DNA of 64,000 nucleotides from a virus (lineage: Duplodnaviria; Caudoviricetes), in IMG/VR virus record IMGVR_UViG_3300028907_000003, positions 21,000 to 84,999 of that record; one strand, given 5' to 3'. A program made the translations under genes and the position numbers. This document shows positions 20,933 to 55,365 of the stretch, one piece after another. The notes under the pieces are model-generated. The model saw only the letters and a list, made by a program, of their open reading frames with translations, searched no databases and had not been told where the DNA came from. The first letter of the stretch is position 1. Every line of letters starts with the position of its first letter.

Positions 20933-21216
20933 AAGATGAAATATTCGATACACGCACGTATCGTGAAGAAGTTAATCGAGACATTGCCACAATGGAAGTT
21001 GTAATTGATTCATTTGTAGGTAGTGTAGATAAGGTTGACCAAGTAACGGATGTCGAGAAACTCGAAGAAGATATAAACTACGTTGTATCTAAGAGCACTA
21101 GGTTTATTGGTTATGTAAGTGTATTTAAGATGGATTATGGTATTAAGATAGATTTTAGCCTGATGCCAGCACAGTATACATTTGCTGCATTGGGTACGGA
21201 GAAAATGGATGACTGA
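20929..21216 (+). CDS. Hypothetical acidic protein
   Basis: ATGA coupling; GGAGG RBS. Confidence 0.65.
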   Translation: MKDEIFDTRTYREEVNRDIATMEVVIDSFVGSVDKVDQVTDVEKLEEDINYVVSKSTRFIGYVSVFKMDYGIKIDFSLMPAQYTFAALGTEKMDD

Positions 21217-41726: not shown

Positions 41727-41968
41727 TCGAAATTCCAGTTATTAAATGTGATGGATGTTTCGAAGTAACGCCACTGGATGAAGTTGATGTTATCGAGAAG
41801 CATCCTAATGGTATCGTATTCAAATGCCCTCAATGCGGGTTAACTGATCTATCCTTCGGTGAACCGTTTTATGTACCAATGGGACCGGATCCGGAAGATG
41901 AAGCATTGAACGAGTTAGACAAAACATACGATTATGATATTTGGTTGAGGCATAAATGCAGATCTTAG
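41723..41968 (+). CDS. Zn-ribbon protein
   Basis: CDGC...CPQCG. Confidence 0.7.
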   Translation: MIEIPVIKCDGCFEVTPLDEVDVIEKHPNGIVFKCPQCGLTDLSFGEPFYVPMGPDPEDEALNELDKTYDYDIWLRHKCRS

Positions 41969-44900
41969 ATTGCTATTACAAGTACGATCACAAAGAGAAG
42001 CATCCAACGGTGTTTTTAGTTGGGAAAGATGCTAATGGAAAGCTGAGAACTTTACATACTGAGCACCATTATCCGTACTTCTATGCGGTTGGTGAATTAC
42101 CGCCCAAACTTGCTGATAACCACATGATACATAGCATAGATGCAGTAGATAAGTTCCTTCCGATTGGATATCAAACACAGACCACGCCAATGTGGAAAAT
42201 CACTCTATTTAATCCCGGTGATACCAGTGAAATACGGGATGGGTTAATTGATAGAGGACTAAAGGTGTTTGAAGCTGATATCTTGTATAAGTATCGCTAT
42301 ATGGTAGATCACAATTTAGGGGGAATGATTTGGACCAATGATGGGATACATCGGGTGGAAAACGAGTTAAATGCGCCATTAAAAACGCTGGCATTTGATA
42401 TCGAAGTATTGCTTAATGAGGCTGGCAATTTCCCAATATCCAGCCCCTCGGTTGACACAAAAGGCAATCTCCTCAGAGAAGCGGATCCCATAGTGATCAT
42501 TACAATGGCTATGTCGGATGGTAACATCAAGCTGCTCAAAAACGATGATGAAGCTGAACTTCTACGGGATTTTGTAACCGAAGTTAATAAGTTTGATCCA
42601 GATATTGTTGTTTCATATAACGGTGATAGTTTCGATTGGCCGTACATCATTGATCGAGCGCATCTCAATGAAGTTCCGTTGAGCATCGGGAGAGATAAAT
42701 CTGAGCCAAAGATTCGAGAGGTTGGAGATTCGAGCCAGATTTTAATCCGAGGACGGGTTTCGCTGGATATGCTACCGATAATTCGTAAGAATTATTCGTT
42801 AAAGAATTACAAGTTAGCAACTGCCGCTTCGCTAGTCAATGAGGAAAAGCTCGATGTGAAGCCACAGGAAATGCGCAGATTGTGGTTGGCTCATGATACA
42901 AAATTCCTGGAATATGCTAAACAAGATGCCAATATTACGCTAAAGTTGCTACTGGATCTCAAGTTGTTAGAAAAATACATCGCATTATCAAAAGCTACAG
43001 GATTATTGCTACAAGATGTTTTATATAGCGGCCAATCAGCAATGATTGAGAACTTATTTCTAAAGGAGTTCAATAAGCGAGATCGTGTATTGGGAATCAA
43101 GCCTAGAAGAAGTGCAGCTAAAATAAAGTCGGAACCATTAGATTGTGTTTTCGGGAGCTATATCGAATCATCGGAAGAAGATGATGACGGTGTTAAATAT
43201 GAAGGAGCCACCGTATTAACACCACCAAAGGGTTTAGTAGAAGATGTAGTTGTTCTGGATTATAAATCGCTATACCCAACTATAATTATATCGCATAATC
43301 TCTCGTATGATACTATCCTTCTGGATGATACTCTGGATGTACCATATGAAGAAGCTCCTAAATTCAACCAGGAAGCCACCAGAGGCCCAAGGTTCGTAGA
43401 TAAGACTGTTCTTAAGGGGATTTTACCTAGCATCTTAGAAACTCTCTTAGAGGAGCGATTAGAGGCCAAGAAAGCGATGAAGGCCGCTGCTGACGGATCT
43501 TTGGAGAAAACGCTGTATGATGCCAAACAATACGCTTTTAAAATATTACTTAATTCATGTTATGGGTATTGTGGATATAAACACTCACGCACATTTATAG
43601 TTGATATTGCCGCCAGTGTTACTAGTTATGGTAGACAAAACATTGAAAAAACTCGGCAATTGGTCAAAGAAATGGGATATGAAACTGTATACGGTGATAG
43701 TATCACTGGTGATCGATGTATAACCATTAAAGATCATGATAATATGATTAAAGTTATACCAATTGAAAAACTGTTCCATGGCACTATCCAACATGATGTA
43801 TTCAGTAATAAAGATTATATTACTGAAGTTCCATATATGGCACTCACCCATCTGGGTTGGCGGCCAATTAAATCTATTATGCGACATCATACTGAAAAAC
43901 AGTTATATCGAATTAATCAGAAATTTGGCGAAACTGTCTGTACCGAAGATCATTCATTGATGGATATTAATTTACACGAAATGAAGCCCATGGAGATGCA
44001 TAACACTGAAATGTATAGATGTGACGTACCAGAACCATCAACATATATAGAAATCATTGATTTGTACGAATATGTTAAAGATTTTAAAGTGCGTGTTGTA
44101 TATAAAGGGCGTACTAAGATAAGTAAATTTAATTTATATAATGATGAGTATTTAACCTTTGGGTGGACTGTTCGGAAAAACCCAATATTATTAAAACGGT
44201 ACATTAAAGAAACTGATATAGATCAGTTGTGTATATTACTTGGTGGATATATTACTAACGGAAGTTCGGTTTTTGGTAGTAAAACCGGAGCAAGTATATG
44301 TGATTCTAACATCGATTGGTTAGAAAAAATGCAATTCGCATATAATTCGTTATTTATTGGTGCAAAAACTTGTATCATTGAGTCGAGTAAAAAAGATCGT
44401 GTATTACAAAATGGTACAGTTTATAAAGACAAAACGCGAAAATTGCAAATGATGAATGGCATTAGTGCGGCGTTGTTTACTGCGTTATGTAATCATGGCG
44501 CATATAGTAAAAAACTACCCGATTTTGTGTATAATCTACAACCAACCCATCGTGAAATATTGTTATCCACTATTATAGAGGGTGATGGATCAAGAACCAG
44601 TTGTACCAGATATACTGAGTCATATCGAAAAATAGAATTTACGTATAGTACGGTGTCTACTGAGTTGGCATCAGGTTTATCTACATTAATGAATATAATG
44701 CGTATAAATCACAGCATTCGATTTAGACAAGCCAAACATGAATATAAATTAGTTACTTCTAGTGTCTTTAATAGCAAGATAATAACTAAATTGTCGAAAG
44801 AGCCATCAAACACTTATGTGTATGATATAGAAGTAGATGATGCTCACGCATTTGTTGACTCGTGTGGAAATATATTATTACACAATACGGATTCTTTATT

Positions 44901-45645
44901 CGTTAAAACAAATATCGCAGATTTTGATCAATCTATGCAGATTGCCGATAAACTTGCAAAAGCCGCGACAGCACAGCTTCCACCACCAATGGAGCTAGTA
45001 CCGGAAGCGTACTGTAAGCGAGTTCTGTTTCTCGCGAAAAAACATTATTCTAAATATCAATTTGAGAAAAGGGGTATTGGAAAAATTAAAAGTAAAGGAT
45101 TAGAAACTGTTAGGCGTGATTGGTGTGAGTATACATCTGAAACATTGACCGCTATACTAAATACTGTAATGCTCGAAGGTGATGTTGATAAGGCTCTTGA
45201 AATTGCTCGCGAAGCAATAACTAAGATTAAGACATCTGATTTAACGGATCCGGGTATATACTGGAAGCTGGTTTTGTCAAAAAAATATGGAAGTGAATAC
45301 AAACCAGGTGCGGAAACAAGATTGGCTCACCTTATTCTGATAGACAAAATGAAAAAACGGAATCTCATGGATTACCAAGTTAATGATAGAGTGCAATTCG
45401 TGGTTGTTAAAGGATCTTCTGATTTAACTAAGGATGATCATCGCGGTAAATTCAGAGATCAAGCTGAGGATCCTGAGTATGCTTTGGAGCATGGAATTGA
45501 ACTAGATCGAAAGTATTATATAGAAAAACAGCTAGTAAAACCTATTCACCGAATGCTAGGTGTGCTCGGTGTTACAGAAGCGATGCTCTTAAATACTAGT
45601 ATCGCTAAAGAGAGTAGTATGCAAAAGACGCTGTTCGATTGGTGA
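41956..45645 (+). CDS. polB: Family B DNA polymerase with intein
   Basis: Exo AFDIE, YNGDSFD, YAKQDA; DYKSLYP, KILLNSCYG, YGD/TDS, KKHY, KGLE; C-terminal PIP box QKTLFDW. Confidence 0.96.
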   Translation: MQILDCYYKYDHKEKHPTVFLVGKDANGKLRTLHTEHHYPYFYAVGELPPKLADNHMIHSIDAVDKFLPIGYQTQTTPMWKITLFNPGDTSEIRDGLIDRGLKVFEADILYKYRYMVDHNLGGMIWTNDGIHRVENELNAPLKTLAFDIEVLLNEAGNFPISSPSVDTKGNLLREADPIVIITMAMSDGNIKLLKNDDEAELLRDFVTEVNKFDPDIVVSYNGDSFDWPYIIDRAHLNEVPLSIGRDKSEPKIREVGDSSQILIRGRVSLDMLPIIRKNYSLKNYKLATAASLVNEEKLDVKPQEMRRLWLAHDTKFLEYAKQDANITLKLLLDLKLLEKYIALSKATGLLLQDVLYSGQSAMIENLFLKEFNKRDRVLGIKPRRSAAKIKSEPLDCVFGSYIESSEEDDDGVKYEGATVLTPPKGLVEDVVVLDYKSLYPTIIISHNLSYDTILLDDTLDVPYEEAPKFNQEATRGPRFVDKTVLKGILPSILETLLEERLEAKKAMKAAADGSLEKTLYDAKQYAFKILLNSCYGYCGYKHSRTFIVDIAASVTSYGRQNIEKTRQLVKEMGYETVYGDSITGDRCITIKDHDNMIKVIPIEKLFHGTIQHDVFSNKDYITEVPYMALTHLGWRPIKSIMRHHTEKQLYRINQKFGETVCTEDHSLMDINLHEMKPMEMHNTEMYRCDVPEPSTYIEIIDLYEYVKDFKVRVVYKGRTKISKFNLYNDEYLTFGWTVRKNPILLKRYIKETDIDQLCILLGGYITNGSSVFGSKTGASICDSNIDWLEKMQFAYNSLFIGAKTCIIESSKKDRVLQNGTVYKDKTRKLQMMNGISAALFTALCNHGAYSKKLPDFVYNLQPTHREILLSTIIEGDGSRTSCTRYTESYRKIEFTYSTVSTELASGLSTLMNIMRINHSIRFRQAKHEYKLVTSSVFNSKIITKLSKEPSNTYVYDIEVDDAHAFVDSCGNILLHNTDSLFVKTNIADFDQSMQIADKLAKAATAQLPPPMELVPEAYCKRVLFLAKKHYSKYQFEKRGIGKIKSKGLETVRRDWCEYTSETLTAILNTVMLEGDVDKALEIAREAITKIKTSDLTDPGIYWKLVLSKKYGSEYKPGAETRLAHLILIDKMKKRNLMDYQVNDRVQFVVVKGSSDLTKDDHRGKFRDQAEDPEYALEHGIELDRKYYIEKQLVKPIHRMLGVLGVTEAMLLNTSIAKESSMQKTLFDW
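43699..44886 (+). mobile_element. Intein at the YGD/TDS (Pol-c) site, 396 aa
   Basis: Starts SITGD, ends LLHN, Thr at +1; LAGLIDADG-like LGGYITNG and IIEGDG; AT-rich. Confidence 0.92.
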
Positions 45646-45837: not shown

Positions 45838-46800
45838 ATGAGAACATTAGATGATGTGGGGTTCTATACAATGACCGAGAAGCGGGTTGCTACGTCAACC
45901 TGCTATACTCCGGTGTATAGAGCGGAATTTATAATTACTGATTTGTGCAATTTTAAGTGTCCGTATTGTAGAGGAATCGACTGTGGGGGATATTTAAAAT
46001 ATCGGGACTTTGCAGAGCAGCTTGGTTATGTCGGGGTTGGTACTCGTGGCTTGAAGAATATTAGATTCTCAGGCGGGGAACCTACACTGCATCCGGACTT
46101 GGGAAGATTTGTTGAATTGGCTAAAAAGCATCACTGTGAGCATATAGCTATTTCAACTAATGGGTCAGCCCCTAGAGAAGCATACGATGCACTATTAGAA
46201 GCCGGTGTAAATGATTTCTCTATCAGTTTGGATGCATGTTGCTCCAGTTTCGGAGAGAAAATGTGTGGTGGGATCCCTGGAGCGTGGGAAAGAGTCATCG
46301 ACAATATCAAGTATCTGTCAAAGAAAACATATGTTACTCTAGGAATGGTATTTGATGACAGTACTATTGAAACCATGCCAGAAACCGTTCAATTCGGACA
46401 TGATCTTGGAGTGGCAGATATCAGAGTGATATCTTCGGCGCAGTCCGATCTTACATTGAGTGGATTAAAGTCAATTGATTGGAATCTCCTGAAAGATCAC
46501 CCGATTCTGAAATATCGAGTAATGAATACCGTAGAGGGCAGACATGTACGCGGGTTAACCAAGATGGACAGCGATAAATGCCCGCTTGTTATGGATGATG
46601 TGATGATATGCAATGGTAATCATTATGCGTGTCCAATTCATATGCGTGAGCATGGAGAACCCATTGGAAAAGTCGGTCCTGGTATGTGGAATGAACGGGA
46701 AATGTGGTGGTTAAAACACAATACGCAAAAGGATCCAATATGTAAGCATAACTGTATTGAATGCTGTGTGGACTTCAATAACCGTTGGGAGTTGTATTAA
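45838..46800 (+). CDS. Radical SAM enzyme with Cys-rich C-terminus
   Basis: CNFKCPYC, SGGEP, ISTNG, SISLD; C-terminal C..C..C..CIECC. Confidence 0.9.
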   Translation: MRTLDDVGFYTMTEKRVATSTCYTPVYRAEFIITDLCNFKCPYCRGIDCGGYLKYRDFAEQLGYVGVGTRGLKNIRFSGGEPTLHPDLGRFVELAKKHHCEHIAISTNGSAPREAYDALLEAGVNDFSISLDACCSSFGEKMCGGIPGAWERVIDNIKYLSKKTYVTLGMVFDDSTIETMPETVQFGHDLGVADIRVISSAQSDLTLSGLKSIDWNLLKDHPILKYRVMNTVEGRHVRGLTKMDSDKCPLVMDDVMICNGNHYACPIHMREHGEPIGKVGPGMWNEREMWWLKHNTQKDPICKHNCIECCVDFNNRWELY

Positions 46801-49673: not shown

Positions 49674-49707
49674 TTATGCAAATTGAATTTAATAAGAGGC
49701 CAAAAAC

Positions 49708-50700
49708 ATGTTAAAACTAAAAGATGTAGTGTATGAAATTACGCCAAGATGCAATAAGGGATGTATTGAATGTGGTTCAGCTGCAATTACTGGACTACCC
49801 CATCCAGATGTAGCACACATTGGAAAAATAGTGGATTCTATCTTAGCATATCCACCGGAAACTATCACTATAACAGGTGGAGAGCCAGGATCTTTGCCCA
49901 GTGGTGTATTAAATGCTGTAGTTCATGATCTAGCGCAAAAATGCAAAGTAAACATCGTTACAAATGGTGCTCTATTTGATCAAGAGGTAAGCCCGGATTT
50001 TAACGTAATCGGAGTTTCTATCAATAGAGTGGAAGATTCTGAAGAATTTAATCATGGGCAAGCTTTTGGTCGATCTCAGTTTTTTTCTGATAAACTTGTA
50101 ATGATTACAAATTTCGGGACACATAACGTATGGTGCTTTGATCAGCTGGCTGAGATTGCAGCTAAATTCCCAATGTGGCAGATTCAGCTTACCATGGGCG
50201 AATATATGTTACCAGCGACAGGTATTGAATATCTAATGAGTAAGATAAACGATCTTAAAATCAATTACGTACTTGCTGATAATTTGCAGCCTGAAGGCAG
50301 ATGCCTAGCTGGTATCAATATGTGTGGTATTACATATAATGGAAATGTTATTCCATGCTTATCAGAGAGGGCATGCTGTGATGGAACTGTTACCGTATAT
50401 GGTAATTTGTTCTCGGAATCACTAAAATCGATATGGGAAACTAAGTTTACTGATATTCGATTTGTTGATGAGGGTTGGTGCAGAAAGTGTAAAAGTTTCA
50501 TTGATTACCCACCGAAGAAAAAACTATCCGCTAGAGAAAAACTCGGCATGATATTACCCGAAGGACCAATTCGTGATTGGAGTCCAATGGAAATACAGTT
50601 GTACGGTGTAGCTGATACACAGATATATGCTTATGCTGTTTTTGATTCGAGGGATTATTCACATTCTACATATGGTACACAAACAATAATTACAAACTGA
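49708..50700 (+). CDS. Radical SAM/SPASM enzyme with YG-containing tail
   Basis: YEITPRCNKGCIECGS, TGGEP, VTNG, CLAG...GI...G.V.PCLS, GNL, CRKC. Confidence 0.88.
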   Translation: MLKLKDVVYEITPRCNKGCIECGSAAITGLPHPDVAHIGKIVDSILAYPPETITITGGEPGSLPSGVLNAVVHDLAQKCKVNIVTNGALFDQEVSPDFNVIGVSINRVEDSEEFNHGQAFGRSQFFSDKLVMITNFGTHNVWCFDQLAEIAAKFPMWQIQLTMGEYMLPATGIEYLMSKINDLKINYVLADNLQPEGRCLAGINMCGITYNGNVIPCLSERACCDGTVTVYGNLFSESLKSIWETKFTDIRFVDEGWCRKCKSFIDYPPKKKLSAREKLGMILPEGPIRDWSPMEIQLYGVADTQIYAYAVFDSRDYSHSTYGTQTIITN

Positions 50701-50703
50701 GGA

Positions 50704-53700
50704 GTGCTACGAATGCAAAAGAAAGTTTTAACAAGTGACGGTTACGTGTCTACGTTTGACAAGCAGAAGATCATCGATGAGATCCGCAAGAACTGTAAAT
50801 CGATGGGTGTTGAAGTCACCGAGAAACAGTTAACCAAGATTGCTACTAACACAGAAGAAAGTATTAAAGAAATGAAACCCAAACATCTTACCGGGAGTCT
50901 TATTCGTAGTGTATCTCTGATTGAGATGCTGGATCTAGGATTAGAAGATGTTTATAAGGCGTGTGCTAAAGTTGGTATGCCGATTGCTGATATGATGGCG
51001 ATATGGCAAGTAGATGGCGATAGTGTTCATGATAACGCCAATTTAGATGGCACTAATCAGGAGACTCAACACAAAAGAATCGCTGATCATATTTGTAAAG
51101 AAGCCGTACTACAAATGCTTCCTAGCGATATATCGAAACTCCATGTTGAAGGGAATCTACACTGTTTGTCTGGTGACATGCCAATTGTGTATAAAATACA
51201 AGATAAGATATACATATCTACCATCAAGGAATTAGTGGAAACTAGATATGAATCAGCTGTTAGTGTTCCGTCTATTGATACGCGCACGAAAAAGATATCG
51301 TGGAAACCTGTTACTCGATTTATAAAAAATCCATCTACCGATTTATACAAAGTCACGTTTGGTAAAGGTCGATATATCATTTGTACATCGGATCATCCAT
51401 TTTACAAAACATCGGGGCAACATATCCAACATTACACTCAACCACTTAGTGATTTACGAGTTGGTCATAGAATCGCCACATTAAATCATATACCAATTGA
51501 TGATGTACAAGATGAAACCTATCGTGGTAATTTAATTGGGTTTTTCTTGGGAGATGGTACATTACAGCATGGTTGTATATGTTTTCATTTGAAAAAAACC
51601 GAAAAAATCACATATCTTATAAATGTATTAAACCATTTAGATAAATCATATGATATGACAAATAACATAGATGGGACAACTACAATTTCATTTAAAGATG
51701 ACGAATTATGTGAAATTTGGAATAATTCAAAAAATATATCAAACTTCAACGAAGTTGATGCTACTGGCATTCTGTCAGGTTTAATTAATTCAGATGCATC
51801 CATCGTATTACATGGGATTAACAAGTTACCATATCTCGAATTCGGTAATACTAACGAAGATATCATTAATTTATATCATTGTTTAATGCTGATGCATGGT
51901 ATAAACGTAAGCTATCAACGATATGACAAAAAATCCGATACGCATAAAGATTTTTATCATTGTGTGTGTTCTGGTGAAGATGTTACCAACTTATTATGTA
52001 AACTAAGGTTACGTAAGCCGTTTGCGGATCGAGTTGCTCAACAATTCACGCATGGGACTAGAAAAACGCATACTTGGTCACAAATACCAATTAAATCTAT
52101 TGAATATTATGGTAATGAGGACACATATGATATTACAGTAGATGAAAATCATAATTTCTTGGCCGGTCATGGATTTATTCTATCAGGCAATTGTCATGAT
52201 ATGGAATACTTTACAAATCGCCAGTTTTGCTACAACAGTGACCTCCGTTTCATTTTATATTATGGACTACTCCCAGATGGATGTGGCAAAACATTACCAG
52301 TTGCAAGAGCAGCACAAACCGCAGAAGTTGCACTTCTACACGCTGCTAAATCACTTGGTTCAAGTCAATGTAATTGCGCTGGAGGTCAGGGGTACAATTC
52401 GTTTAATGTACTAATTTCTCCATATTTAGCTGGTAAGACCTACGCTGAAATAAAACAATTGGCGCAGATGTTTATATACGAAATGGGTCAAATGACATGC
52501 GCTCGTGGAGGACAAAGCCTGAGTTATGATACCCCAATCGTGATAAAGCGGGGTGATGACATCGATATTATATCAATCGGGGATTTCGTTGGTAAATATT
52601 TAAATCAGCCTGGATCATCCACTGTTGATGATATAATATTAACACCATCATTGAACCGGATAACTAATCAAGTAGAATGGAAACCCATAACGCATGTATA
52701 TAAGCATGTGCCAAAATCGAAATTAGTGGCAACATCTCTTCATGATGGTCGATCTGTTACGACAACGGAAGATCATTCATTATTTGATATTAATCAATTC
52801 GGTGATATATATGAAATTTCACCAAGTGATAATCCACACACAATCATCACGGTTAAACAGATTCCAATAACAGGATCAACTATCATTAATCACGATTTGG
52901 CTTTTTTAATTGGTTGTTGTATCGGTGATGGATCTCTTGCTGCTAATAATGGTATACCCGATACTTCTATGCGACTATGTATACACAATCGCGCTGTTAT
53001 GAATCGAATATCTGATATAGTATATAATCTGAATGGATCTGCTGGCGAGTGGCATGAAGATACTCAAAAAAAATGTTCAAGTATGTCGTTTTCTACGATT
53101 GGAATTCCATTAATTACTGAAATTGGTAAAGGAGCATCAAATAAAAGAATACCAGCTGCATTATTGTCATGTGATAATGATACACTTCTATCATTATTAG
53201 ATGGTTTGTTGTCAACTGATGGTAATATAAATCGTAGACGATACCAATATAGCACAACATCAAAAATTCTAATTAATCAAATTGAATACATATTACGTAG
53301 GATTGATTTAGATTACCATATAGATAAACGATTTACAAAAAGTAACTTTGTTAGAAATCACCCAGTATATCGCGTTACGTTAAGTACGATTAGTTCGCTT
53401 GGTATAAAAATTACAAATGATGAACGAACTATCGTAAATACTAATATAATTTCCCAACAACGACATGACTTTAGTATCATGAAATCCGAAATAACTTCTC
53501 GCGTACCCGGATTAAGTAAGTATAGCTACACTTGGCGAGCATCTTCACGAAGGCTAAAGTATCATCAATTAGAACAAGTATCACATTTAATACCGGATAC
53601 ATGGAACAAAATATGCAATATATTACCAATGGAAGTAAAGTCTATAAAAATAACTGAACCAGAAGAATTTGTATTCGACATAGGTGTACAAGACAATGAA

Positions 53701-55365
53701 AATTTTGTGCTCGCTAATGGTATTGTAGCGCATAATTCCGTTTTCAGTTCCATTCAATTGTACCCAGGCGTACCTCAAGTATGGTGGAACCGACCTGTTG
53801 TCTACAAGGGTCAAGTGTGGGATGGTAAACCAAGAACACCTAAGGGTAAAAAACAAACTACCTGTAAATGGAGTTTTGGAGGGAAAACTGGTGATGGTAG
53901 ATTATTCTTTAATCGCAGTGAAACAACTAAAGAAACCATACTAGAACCTGAAACAATTTCACGAAAAACATATGGACAATATGATCGGGAAGCTCGGCTT
54001 TTGTTTAAAGCATTCATGGAAATTTATACCGAAGGTGATATTCGTGGTAGGCCGTTCACATTCCCAAAGGCAGAAATCGTATTCTCTAAGGAGTTCATGG
54101 ATTCTCCTGATTTTGATAAACCTATTATCCGAAGGCTTACTGAATGGTCTGCTCCGAGTTACAAAGAACAATATCAATCTGCGATTAAATTAGCATTAAC
54201 TAATGGAACACCATATTTTGAATCGCAGTATCACGAAGAAAATCCATTAACTTCTATCAATTGTACCCAATGTTGCGCGTACAGCTTTGCATTAAGTGAA
54301 GAAGAAACTGTAGGATTCAACAACATGATGGATTTCGTAGATGGAGCGCATTTCGATTCACTTGGATCTATGCAAGTTGTGTCACTGAATTTACCAAGAG
54401 CCGCTTATGTAGCACTTGAAAGTGAAGAAGAAGATAAATTCATGACTGCTCTAAAGTACCTCAGAGAGCAAATCGATAATGCGGTGAGAGTATTTAAGAT
54501 TAAACGTGAATATTTATCTAAACAAGCATCACCATTTATAAGGCAACAGGTAGTGGATCCAAATGACCCAACTAAAAAATCCCCGGTATTCTGTGACTTG
54601 AGTAAACTGACATATGTAATCGGGATGGTTGGTCTAAATGAGTTTGTTCAAGCTCTAACTGGAATGCAGCTGCATGAATCTGAAGATGCTGTTGTCATGG
54701 GTGAGCGACTCATTGGATCACTTAACCTGTACTGTGGTAAGGTCGGGCATGAAAACGGAATGAGCATTGCATTGGCTCGAACTCCAGCTGAGACTACAGC
54801 CCAACGATTCGCCGTACAGGATTTAATCAAGTATCCAAAATATGCTAAAAAATATGTAAAAGGCAACCTAAAAGAAGCTATTAAAATGCTTCCTACTAGG
54901 AGAGATGTACCGATCCAGTACAGCAACGGTACACACTTGGCGGTAGATGCTCCGGTGACGCTAGATAAAAAGATCGAGATTGAAGGTCGATTCTTTGGTG
55001 TTCTCAAAGGCGGTAATATCTTCCATGTGTTCCTCGATGATGTAGTTCCGATGCTTAGAGCAAGCGAACTAGGAACCGGTGAGATACATCCGTCATACGT
55101 TGATGATGCTATGGAATTCGTGTTTAAGATCTTCCGTGAAACGCCGATCAACTATCTGGCGATAACCAAGGACTCGACGATATGTGATGATTGTAATTCG
55201 ATCACGCCCGGAGTAAATGAAAAATGTCCCAAATGCGGCTCAACAAATGTTGACTTTTTCAGTCGCATAACTGGATATTTGGAACCGATCAGTCAATGGA
55301 ATGCTGCAAAAAAACAAGAATTCTTTGATCGACATAGATATGGTGAAAAAGATGTCAGAGGATGA
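50704..55365 (+). CDS. nrdD: Anaerobic (class III) ribonucleotide reductase with ATP cone and two inteins
   Basis: ATP cone; H/CHDMEY; QCCAY; LNLPR; YSNGTH; Zn site CDDC..CPKC; glycyl loop SRITGYL. Confidence 0.96.
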   Translation: MLRMQKKVLTSDGYVSTFDKQKIIDEIRKNCKSMGVEVTEKQLTKIATNTEESIKEMKPKHLTGSLIRSVSLIEMLDLGLEDVYKACAKVGMPIADMMAIWQVDGDSVHDNANLDGTNQETQHKRIADHICKEAVLQMLPSDISKLHVEGNLHCLSGDMPIVYKIQDKIYISTIKELVETRYESAVSVPSIDTRTKKISWKPVTRFIKNPSTDLYKVTFGKGRYIICTSDHPFYKTSGQHIQHYTQPLSDLRVGHRIATLNHIPIDDVQDETYRGNLIGFFLGDGTLQHGCICFHLKKTEKITYLINVLNHLDKSYDMTNNIDGTTTISFKDDELCEIWNNSKNISNFNEVDATGILSGLINSDASIVLHGINKLPYLEFGNTNEDIINLYHCLMLMHGINVSYQRYDKKSDTHKDFYHCVCSGEDVTNLLCKLRLRKPFADRVAQQFTHGTRKTHTWSQIPIKSIEYYGNEDTYDITVDENHNFLAGHGFILSGNCHDMEYFTNRQFCYNSDLRFILYYGLLPDGCGKTLPVARAAQTAEVALLHAAKSLGSSQCNCAGGQGYNSFNVLISPYLAGKTYAEIKQLAQMFIYEMGQMTCARGGQSLSYDTPIVIKRGDDIDIISIGDFVGKYLNQPGSSTVDDIILTPSLNRITNQVEWKPITHVYKHVPKSKLVATSLHDGRSVTTTEDHSLFDINQFGDIYEISPSDNPHTIITVKQIPITGSTIINHDLAFLIGCCIGDGSLAANNGIPDTSMRLCIHNRAVMNRISDIVYNLNGSAGEWHEDTQKKCSSMSFSTIGIPLITEIGKGASNKRIPAALLSCDNDTLLSLLDGLLSTDGNINRRRYQYSTTSKILINQIEYILRRIDLDYHIDKRFTKSNFVRNHPVYRVTLSTISSLGIKITNDERTIVNTNIISQQRHDFSIMKSEITSRVPGLSKYSYTWRASSRRLKYHQLEQVSHLIPDTWNKICNILPMEVKSIKITEPEEFVFDIGVQDNENFVLANGIVAHNSVFSSIQLYPGVPQVWWNRPVVYKGQVWDGKPRTPKGKKQTTCKWSFGGKTGDGRLFFNRSETTKETILEPETISRKTYGQYDREARLLFKAFMEIYTEGDIRGRPFTFPKAEIVFSKEFMDSPDFDKPIIRRLTEWSAPSYKEQYQSAIKLALTNGTPYFESQYHEENPLTSINCTQCCAYSFALSEEETVGFNNMMDFVDGAHFDSLGSMQVVSLNLPRAAYVALESEEEDKFMTALKYLREQIDNAVRVFKIKREYLSKQASPFIRQQVVDPNDPTKKSPVFCDLSKLTYVIGMVGLNEFVQALTGMQLHESEDAVVMGERLIGSLNLYCGKVGHENGMSIALARTPAETTAQRFAVQDLIKYPKYAKKYVKGNLKEAIKMLPTRRDVPIQYSNGTHLAVDAPVTLDKKIEIEGRFFGVLKGGNIFHVFLDDVVPMLRASELGTGEIHPSYVDDAMEFVFKIFRETPINYLAITKDSTICDDCNSITPGVNEKCPKCGSTNVDFFSRITGYLEPISQWNAAKKQEFFDRHRYGEKDVRG
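51163..52191 (+). mobile_element. NrdD intein 1 (343 aa), penultimate Gly
   Basis: Starts CLSGD, ends ILSGN, Cys at +1; IGFFLGDG and SGLINSDA. Confidence 0.9.
52516..53736 (+). mobile_element. NrdD intein 2 (407 aa), Ser1
   Basis: RGGQ/SLSYDT...VAHN/SVFSS; IGCCIGDG and DGLLSTDG. Confidence 0.92.

Follow-up and report, generated by a model that had tools for sequence, protein, structure and literature searches.

We describe a viral radical S-adenosylmethionine (SAM) enzyme that appears to carry its own substrate. It is encoded in the window analyzed here, a 64,000-nucleotide stretch (positions 21,000 to 84,999) of the IMG/VR virus record IMGVR_UViG_3300028907_000003 (Duplodnaviria; Caudoviricetes), where the gene at 49708-50700 on the plus strand specifies a 330–amino acid protein with a flexible, tyrosine-containing tail. 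We consider it somewhat more probable than the contrary, at roughly 0.55, that this tail is a built-in substrate of tyrosine-directed radical modification, and by the same judgment the sequence points to a reduced viral relative of the splicease-type radical SAM/SPASM peptide maturases that has been joined to its own substrate. We favor this reading because the tyrosine module is nearly universal in the family, always fused to the enzyme, repeated, and matched to native splice cores; because the family lacks a recognition domain, and a homologous split system has its tyrosine module on a neighboring protein; and because two peptide maturases, SuiB and SkfB, are among the best structural matches (Z scores of 19.6 to 19.7). 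Among the candidate chemistries, splicease-type excision of a tyramine equivalent would be the leading one, although only tentatively.

The open reading frame is uninterrupted. An earlier note on this DNA, made from its letters alone, had called a radical SAM/SPASM enzyme here, and the call holds. The cysteine triad C15-x3-C19-x2-C22 lies within YEITPRCNKGCIECGS and is invariant in the alignment of homologs. Pfam recognizes both a Radical_SAM domain (PF04055, E = 3.6e-6) and a SPASM domain (PF13186, E = 1.4e-7, residues 199-262), with the segment C199..G212-x4-C217 sitting within CLAGINMCGITYNGNVIPCLS. In the C-terminal domain, only three cysteines (C199, C217, and C261) never vary across the family, whereas a fourth is variable, and the cysteine content of this shortened SPASM domain is, judged from the residues present, sufficient for one auxiliary cluster. 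The CX5CX3C...C half of SPASM is absent from the viral enzyme, and its alignment to relatives with a full SPASM stops before CX5CX3C. The barrel begins at about residue 5, and an N-terminal recognition domain is absent from the family. AlphaFold2, run on a 76-sequence alignment, predicts a confident barrel (mean predicted local distance difference test score, pLDDT, of 84.8) and a tail that is disordered beyond about residue 280 (pLDDT 31-68). An identical enzyme (100%) occurs on an independent activated-sludge contig (L012), and the homolog P0001 is 89% identical.

The tyrosine motif is a trait of the whole family. A word-indexed search gave 81 homologs, and an exhaustive profile search gave 265 cluster representatives at E ≤ 1e-30; the family comprises at least 265 metagenomic clusters at 50% identity. 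We defined the tail as the sequence after the last invariant cysteine and scored it in 192 members for the motif Y-[GA]-[VAITC]. Homologs can be aligned over the core, up to about residue 270; their tails cannot be aligned as wholes, yet nearly all hold short modules centered on Tyr-Gly. At least one motif was present in the tails of 186 of the 192 members, in 1 to 7 copies, and it was also found in 113 of 115 representatives of the 50%-identity clusters that the exhaustive profile search had newly found. Across the 192 members, the tails contain 339 YG dipeptides, compared with 64.8 ± 7.7 (maximum of 91) in 1000 shuffles, making YG the most enriched tail dipeptide (5.3-fold). The logo consensus downstream of the last conserved cysteine is P-x-V-Phi-[VLM]-Y-[G/A]-V-x-x-P: the tyrosine is invariant, position +1 is G or A, and V fills position +2 in 78%, with prolines on either side of the module. 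Position −1 is V at 41%, L at 19%, and M at 16% of the family sites. Y-A sites make up 136 of 475 (~29%) and have the same flanks as YG sites. A narrower pattern, [MLVI]YG[VL]x(1,2)P, occurs in 82 of 192 tails, at 6.8 sites per 1000 residues versus 0.02 in the cores. The median distance from C261 to the first module is 45 residues (interquartile range of 39 to 53), successive modules are mostly 9 to 14 residues apart, and a median of 20 residues follows the last one, so that the motifs are internal as well as repeated.

In the enzyme studied here, LYG and TYG had been reported in the tail, and both are present as read (codons 50599-50607 for L298-Y299-G300 and 50668-50676 for T321-Y322-G323). 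Their standing differs, however. LYG is the conserved family motif, its Y299 being conserved in at least 90% of the family alignment, but TYG is off-consensus, and the second conserved copy is instead Y309-A310-V311 (codons 50632-50640). The strict tail motif was found nowhere else in a six-frame translation of the 85-kb virus. Within the viral family, we did not find a split form with enzyme and motif on separate genes, nor longer fused forms at 787-2245 amino acids (lengths of 578-787 amino acids were outside the search). The sole apparently tail-less member with DNA to inspect is the 280–amino acid homolog P0015 (L021:1213-2400). Its gene is frameshifted, by sequencing error or by a real lesion, and the other frame runs on into QIQLYGC...VIVYGV.

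The modules resemble the targets of tyramine spliceases. The Plp splicing tags GAVAAGYGVVFPG and GGPIRPLYGLPI correspond to native MYG and LYG cores, with G substituting for the native M or L in some tags (PMC10533398), and RcsX and RasX splice MYG and LYG (PMC11626197). Because the tags carry G for the native M or L, the native Plp cores read [M/L]-Y-G-[V/L]-x-x-P, which as a sequence pattern matches the tail consensus [VLM]YGVxxP. Splicing on short tags is leader independent, and engineered enzyme-activator fusions are functional (PMC11414181). Like the viral family, the spliceases (PlpX/PlpY/PlpA, PcpX, RhaX/RhaA, RcsX, RasX; IPR026482) are radical SAM enzymes with a SPASM-type domain that have a hydrophobic-Tyr-Gly target followed by Val or Leu and then proline, and several sites per substrate are common. 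Spliceases use a separate precursor with a Nif11/NHLP-type leader, a PlpY-like recognition protein, or both, whereas the motif is fused to the viral enzyme. Moreover, the spliceases are bacterial, have a full SPASM domain, and are reported on XYG only, whereas the viral family has half a SPASM domain, tolerates Ala in place of Gly, and is found mostly on archaeal-virus-like contigs.

Cellular relatives connect the two groups. The splicease model TIGR04103 presumably describes the same family as InterPro IPR026482. Searching 301 Nanoarchaeota genomes with the family profile returned one true member (in G010). Three relatives (L055-L057; E = 1e-37 to 1e-30) could be aligned over the entire core, whereas matches to hundreds of further radical SAM proteins were confined to the N-terminal half. 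The top NCBIfam match of the three relatives is TIGR04103, at 239, 213, and 190 bits, with TIGR03913 and TIGR04133 next. In an hhalign comparison with the viral family, they gave a probability of 99.9 (E = 3.5e-33), with CLSxR, GN..SL..IW, and the WQIQ signature common to both, but their SPASM domain still has the complete CX2CX5CX3C...C half, which is absent from the viral family. In two genomes (G168 and G188), the TIGR04103-like enzyme adjoins a two-repeat protein (311 or 368 amino acids; the pair 30% identical, E = 4e-32) whose Gly-rich repeats end in IIKYSLIG, LIRYALIG, VLRYSLSG, and AIKYSLTG. Two further two-repeat homologs have the ends VAKYGILG, VVMYGIVG, and LIRYALQG, with the tyrosine invariant throughout. 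Judged by these sequences, the Nanoarchaeota enzyme and its two-repeat neighbor look like a split version of the viral fusion. In both systems (L056 and L057 for the cellular pair), the enzyme cores are homologous, and a flexible segment presents a short hydrophobic module whose tyrosine never varies; MYGI and KYGI are among the cellular variants. They differ in that the cellular pair has separate genes, a full-length SPASM domain, and a cellular host, and its module, Phi-Phi-[RKM]-Y-[SAG]-[LI]-x-G, is followed by x-G-x-K rather than by the x-x-P of the viral motif.

Two other Nanoarchaeota loci have small genes next to the enzyme. At L055:900-2077, a 51–amino acid open reading frame containing N-N-F-Y-A-C-T-I-P, which may be a small precursor, lies 18 nucleotides 5′ of the TIGR04103-like gene. 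The true family member lies on a contig of a metagenome-assembled genome (JBBTAN010000017.1), directly 5′ of six tandem small paralogs (L010:9073-11212; 72-160 amino acids, rich in Lys and Glu), each ending in [IV]F[DEG][AS]LE[IF] at the extreme C terminus. Since only 1 of the 301 Nanoarchaeota genomes has a true member, this region may be an integrated or co-binned virus.

If the tail is indeed a substrate, a module would enter the active site of its own chain or, in the manner of borosins, that of a partner chain, and the 5′-deoxyadenosyl radical would start chemistry at or beside the invariant tyrosine. Covalent tethering would then stand in for the leader peptide and recognition element of ordinary maturases, and excision of a tyramine equivalent would leave an alpha-keto-beta-amino amide. 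Several observations weigh against this picture. Half of the SPASM domain is missing, and the splicease model TIGR04103 fails on the 330–amino acid enzyme, at 11.1 bits (E = 0.11), where 725 is the cut-off. With the same model, E = 9e-15 is the best value in the family, and among 76 members, TIGR04133 matches 76 and TIGR04103 matches 70, no better than the models for MoaA and viperin. The splicease-like identity proposed in the earlier note is therefore kept only in part: the radical SAM/SPASM type and the conserved Tyr-Gly tail motif stand, but the assignment to the splicease model does not, and the connection that the note drew to the proteasome is speculative. Viperin (Z = 19.1) is level with SuiB in structural comparison. 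The family has Y-A-V copies, which do not fit the XYG-only record of the described spliceases, and 25 of 192 members lack any YG; these include intact members such as the closest lineage (P0002), whose first motif is LYAV and whose core keeps the cysteine triad. AlphaFold2 gives no confident docking of the tail (pLDDT of 68 at the first motif of the 330–amino acid enzyme), and the four-motif homolog P0053 has a tail pLDDT of 47-57. The adjacency of the split pair was confirmed in two genomes only. A stoichiometric, self-modifying enzyme would also have no obvious role in a nucleotide-metabolism module, and the self-substrate reading leaves the recurrent nrdD neighborhood unexplained, so a docking, gating, or nucleotide-linked role stays alive.

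Searches of general resources placed the enzyme no more precisely. None of the curated NCBIfam models claims it: the best were TIGR04133, AhbD, viperin, HxsC, and MoaA, all far under their cut-offs. In structural comparison, SuiB (Z = 19.7), SkfB (19.6), viperin (19.1), and ChlB and PqqE (18.8) are level, with the cross-linking enzyme CteB and the epimerase EpeE also related. A PDB sequence search gave generic radical SAM matches with MoaA on top (E = 2.5e-10). PHROGs, Pfam, NCBIfam, the PDB sequence search, BFVD, and the ESM Atlas yielded nothing beyond generic radical SAM/SPASM matches, and megablast of the region against phage records gave no match. In the literature, we found no description of the viral enzyme family. 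None of our conclusions draws on the unpublished genome G259. A likeness between V-x-x-Y-[G/A]-V and RVSGYAV, the glycyl-radical loop of PFL, was set aside for two reasons: V, L, or M occupies the position of the radical glycine here, and the structural match to PFL activase is weak.

The tail might instead be a built-in substrate for another reaction, such as linkage of the Tyr ring to the beta-carbon of the +2 Val in a three-residue cyclophane, a Tyr cross-link, or epimerization of the flanking hydrophobic residues. We assign this a minority share of the probability given to the self-substrate reading. An invariant tyrosine followed by a small +1 residue, with the same preference for Val at +2 whether the site is YG or YA, is easier to reconcile with a Y-x-V cross-link than with a reaction that depends on Gly, and the radical SAM triad is present in the members with only YA sites. 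Omega1-X2-X3 motifs are the targets of triceptide enzymes, and the Y-[G/A]-V repeats fit this aromatic-X-X template when the motif pattern alone is compared. The related structures also include the cross-linkers SuiB, SkfB, and CteB and the epimerase EpeE. However, among named models, the one closest to the cellular relatives is that of a splicease, and the combination of V, L, or M at −1 with a downstream proline matches native splice cores. A bolder extension of the splicing chemistry, which we regard as quite unlikely, is that the enzyme is a self-arming bait. Its spliced tail tyrosines would be alpha-ketoamide warheads that covalently trap host or rival proteolytic machines, or the modified tail would serve the viral anaerobic ribonucleotide reductase. 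The targets, by an equally long guess, would be proteasome/PAN, Lon, or HslV-type machines that engage a floppy, degron-like hydrophobic tail. Such a bait would be without precedent both as a natural fusion of a radical SAM enzyme with its substrate and as a ketoamide inhibitor made by a virus.

Alternatively, the tail may be a gating, pseudo-substrate, or docking element of an enzyme that acts on another target in its module, for example, a nucleotide or the class III ribonucleotide reductase system, a possibility that we rank well short of an even chance. The genomic neighborhood speaks for it. NrdD lies close to the enzyme gene in three lineages no more than 38% identical to each other, with a different gene order in each: enzyme then nrdD in the present virus and in L014, nrdD about 1.8 kb upstream in L039, and nrdD (736 amino acids), enzyme (9-nucleotide gap), and an NrdG2-like activase of 194 amino acids (E = 7.7e-20, overlapping start) at L024:3773-7498 and likewise in L025. 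A ThyA-like gene occurs within 8 kb in six lineages, and NrdD is present in every virus record that is at least 27% complete and contains a family member. Viperin and MoaA tie with the maturases by structure and by hidden Markov model, and structural alignments with viperin reach residues 296-307 of the model, so the motif may cap the barrel. MoaA itself needs a disordered C-terminal Gly-Gly tail for radical initiation. On the other hand, viral genes of one functional class cluster anyway. Adjacency to nrdD as a general rule was rejected, since most loci have no NrdD inside 6 to 8 kb, and specific co-occurrence with NrdD was weakened by control viruses related through PolB (a single-sequence search gave none, a two-sequence alignment six): five of them, 81-100% complete and probably of one clade, lack NrdD, ThyA, and the enzyme together. 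The association is thus with the nucleotide-metabolism module overall. One to seven motif copies would be unusual for a gate, no partner or neighbor gene is conserved across 47 loci, and the related split system has its Tyr motif on a separate neighbor, the usual enzyme-substrate layout. Least likely of all, in our view, is an unorthodox NrdG analog that installs the glycyl radical on the neighboring NrdD. The enzyme does occupy the usual place of nrdG, as a radical SAM gene abutting nrdD, with the nrdD ribosome-binding site directly after its stop codon, and JGI labels some members "organic radical activating enzyme." Furthermore, no canonical NrdG-like activase was found in the 85-kb record (G000) or in the complete 115-kb genome G005, each of which has one other radical SAM gene besides the enzyme (~320 and 480 amino acids, respectively). 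Yet the 85-kb record is only 80% complete, and a host NrdG could serve. Small canonical NrdG-like genes stand beside nrdD in G001, G002, G003, G006, and L024, all of which also have the enzyme, so in G001, G002, G003, and G006, it is not the activase. NrdG models score far under cut-off: TIGR02491, TIGR02495, and TIGR02826 are absent from the 25 NCBIfam matches of the enzyme at E up to 1, the sole genome match to TIGR02495 at E ≤ 0.01 is the other radical SAM gene (45838-46800), and TIGR02491 has no genome match at E ≤ 0.001. The enzyme is also twice the size of NrdG, its auxiliary-cluster domain and tail are foreign to NrdG, and PFL activase matches it at Z = 12.2, against 19.7 for SuiB.

Table 1. 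Features of the enzyme gene and its surroundings (positions in the window).
Feature	Position	Strand	Remarks
Shine-Dalgarno–like AAGAGG	49694..49699	+	8 nucleotides 5′ of the enzyme ATG; read from sequence
Radical SAM enzyme gene with tyrosine-motif tail, 330 amino acids, stop codon included	49708..50700	+	100% identical in L012
C15-x3-C19-x2-C22, ligands of the radical SAM [4Fe-4S] cluster	49750..49773	+	99% conserved in 192 members
Family signatures TNFGTHN (residues 134-140) and WQIQLT (157-162)	50107..50193	+	Invariant alignment columns
Truncated SPASM (twitch-like) auxiliary-cluster domain, residues 199-262	50302..50493	+	Pfam PF13186, cysteine census
Proline-rich, fast-evolving linker, last invariant Cys to first motif	50494..50583	+	Family median 45 residues; pLDDT 52-71
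Motif copy 1, P-M-E-I-Q-L-Y299-G300-V-A-D	50584..50616	+	Fits consensus P-x-V-Phi-[VLM]-Y-G-V
Motif copy 2, T-Q-I-Y-A-Y309-A310-V311-F-D, Y-A-V variant	50617..50646	+	Flanks as at YG sites
T321-Y322-G323	50668..50676	+	Off-consensus; kept only in the 89% identical relative
NrdD, anaerobic ribonucleotide reductase, with ATP-cone and two inteins	50701..55365	+	GGAG 50701-50704 directly after the enzyme stop

In the present virus, the genes run 5′ to 3′ from an intein-bearing PolB through a second radical SAM gene paired with a mini-GGDEF gene and an archaeal-type ThyA to the enzyme and NrdD (Table 1). The start of nrdD is likely ATG 50713, and the GTG at 50704 given in the list of open reading frames is probably wrong. 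The GGAG after the enzyme stop, with ATG 50713 following 8 nucleotides on, suggests translational coupling with the upstream enzyme gene. One of the two NrdD inteins carries a LAGLIDADG endonuclease, and PolB (41956-45645) also has an intein. Other loci vary in what surrounds the enzyme. In L024 and L025, it is inserted between the reductase and its activase in a tight operon. At L009:6303-9038, QueD-like and QueE-like genes of the 7-deazaguanine pathway lie directly 5′ of the family member, an arrangement that would also suit a nucleotide-linked role, and a CCA-adding-enzyme–like gene lies farther 5′. Three loci (L001:5381-7018, L002:4119-7294, and L003:5451-7149) hold small paralogs that start with M-x-x-R-x-GF[VI]SNSS[ST][ST]SF. 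These adjoin a second SPASM-domain protein (337 amino acids; PF13186, E = 6.9e-5), about 1 kb 5′ of the tyrosine-tail enzyme, and together they may be another enzyme-substrate set.

Among known systems, the closest in layout are the borosins, OphMA-type autocatalytic alpha-N-methyltransferase precursors that, as proposed for the viral enzyme, have their own core peptide at the C terminus of the same polypeptide. They are the one well-studied natural enzyme-substrate fusion among ribosomal peptides (PMC7878506, PMC8429565). The same arrangement of enzyme and C-terminal core, the core being putative here, occurs in 186 of the 192 members. Borosins are SAM-dependent methyltransferases of fungi and bacteria with a single core, whereas the viral enzyme combines radical SAM and SPASM domains with repeated motifs. 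MoaA, the GTP 3′,8-cyclase, shares with the viral enzyme the radical SAM barrel and one C-terminal auxiliary cluster, and a small-residue motif in its disordered C-terminal tail is needed for catalysis. However, MoaA has a single Gly-Gly at the extreme C terminus and acts on GTP, whereas the viral motifs are internal and repeated.

Our analysis adds an archaeal-virus member to this group of enzymes, its repeated association with nrdD and the nucleotide module, and a truncated SPASM domain. It also adds a bridge, at the level of sequence profiles, that links the viral family, by way of TIGR04103-like Nanoarchaeota enzymes, to a putative split enzyme-substrate pair. If the tail is a substrate, then the family, which is large (265 or more clusters at 50% identity) and purely viral, would consist of enzyme-target fusions. 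Each would be a radical SAM peptide maturase that has dispensed with the machinery for leader recognition, has lost half of the SPASM domain, and has been joined to its own target, a layout otherwise known only for the unrelated borosin methyltransferases. Splicease-like backbone chemistry would then reach from bacterial secondary metabolism to viruses of archaea, and the fusion would offer a compact, one-gene system for putting unusual residues into proteins. It would also raise the question of what a virus gains from a self-modified enzyme among its DNA-precursor genes.

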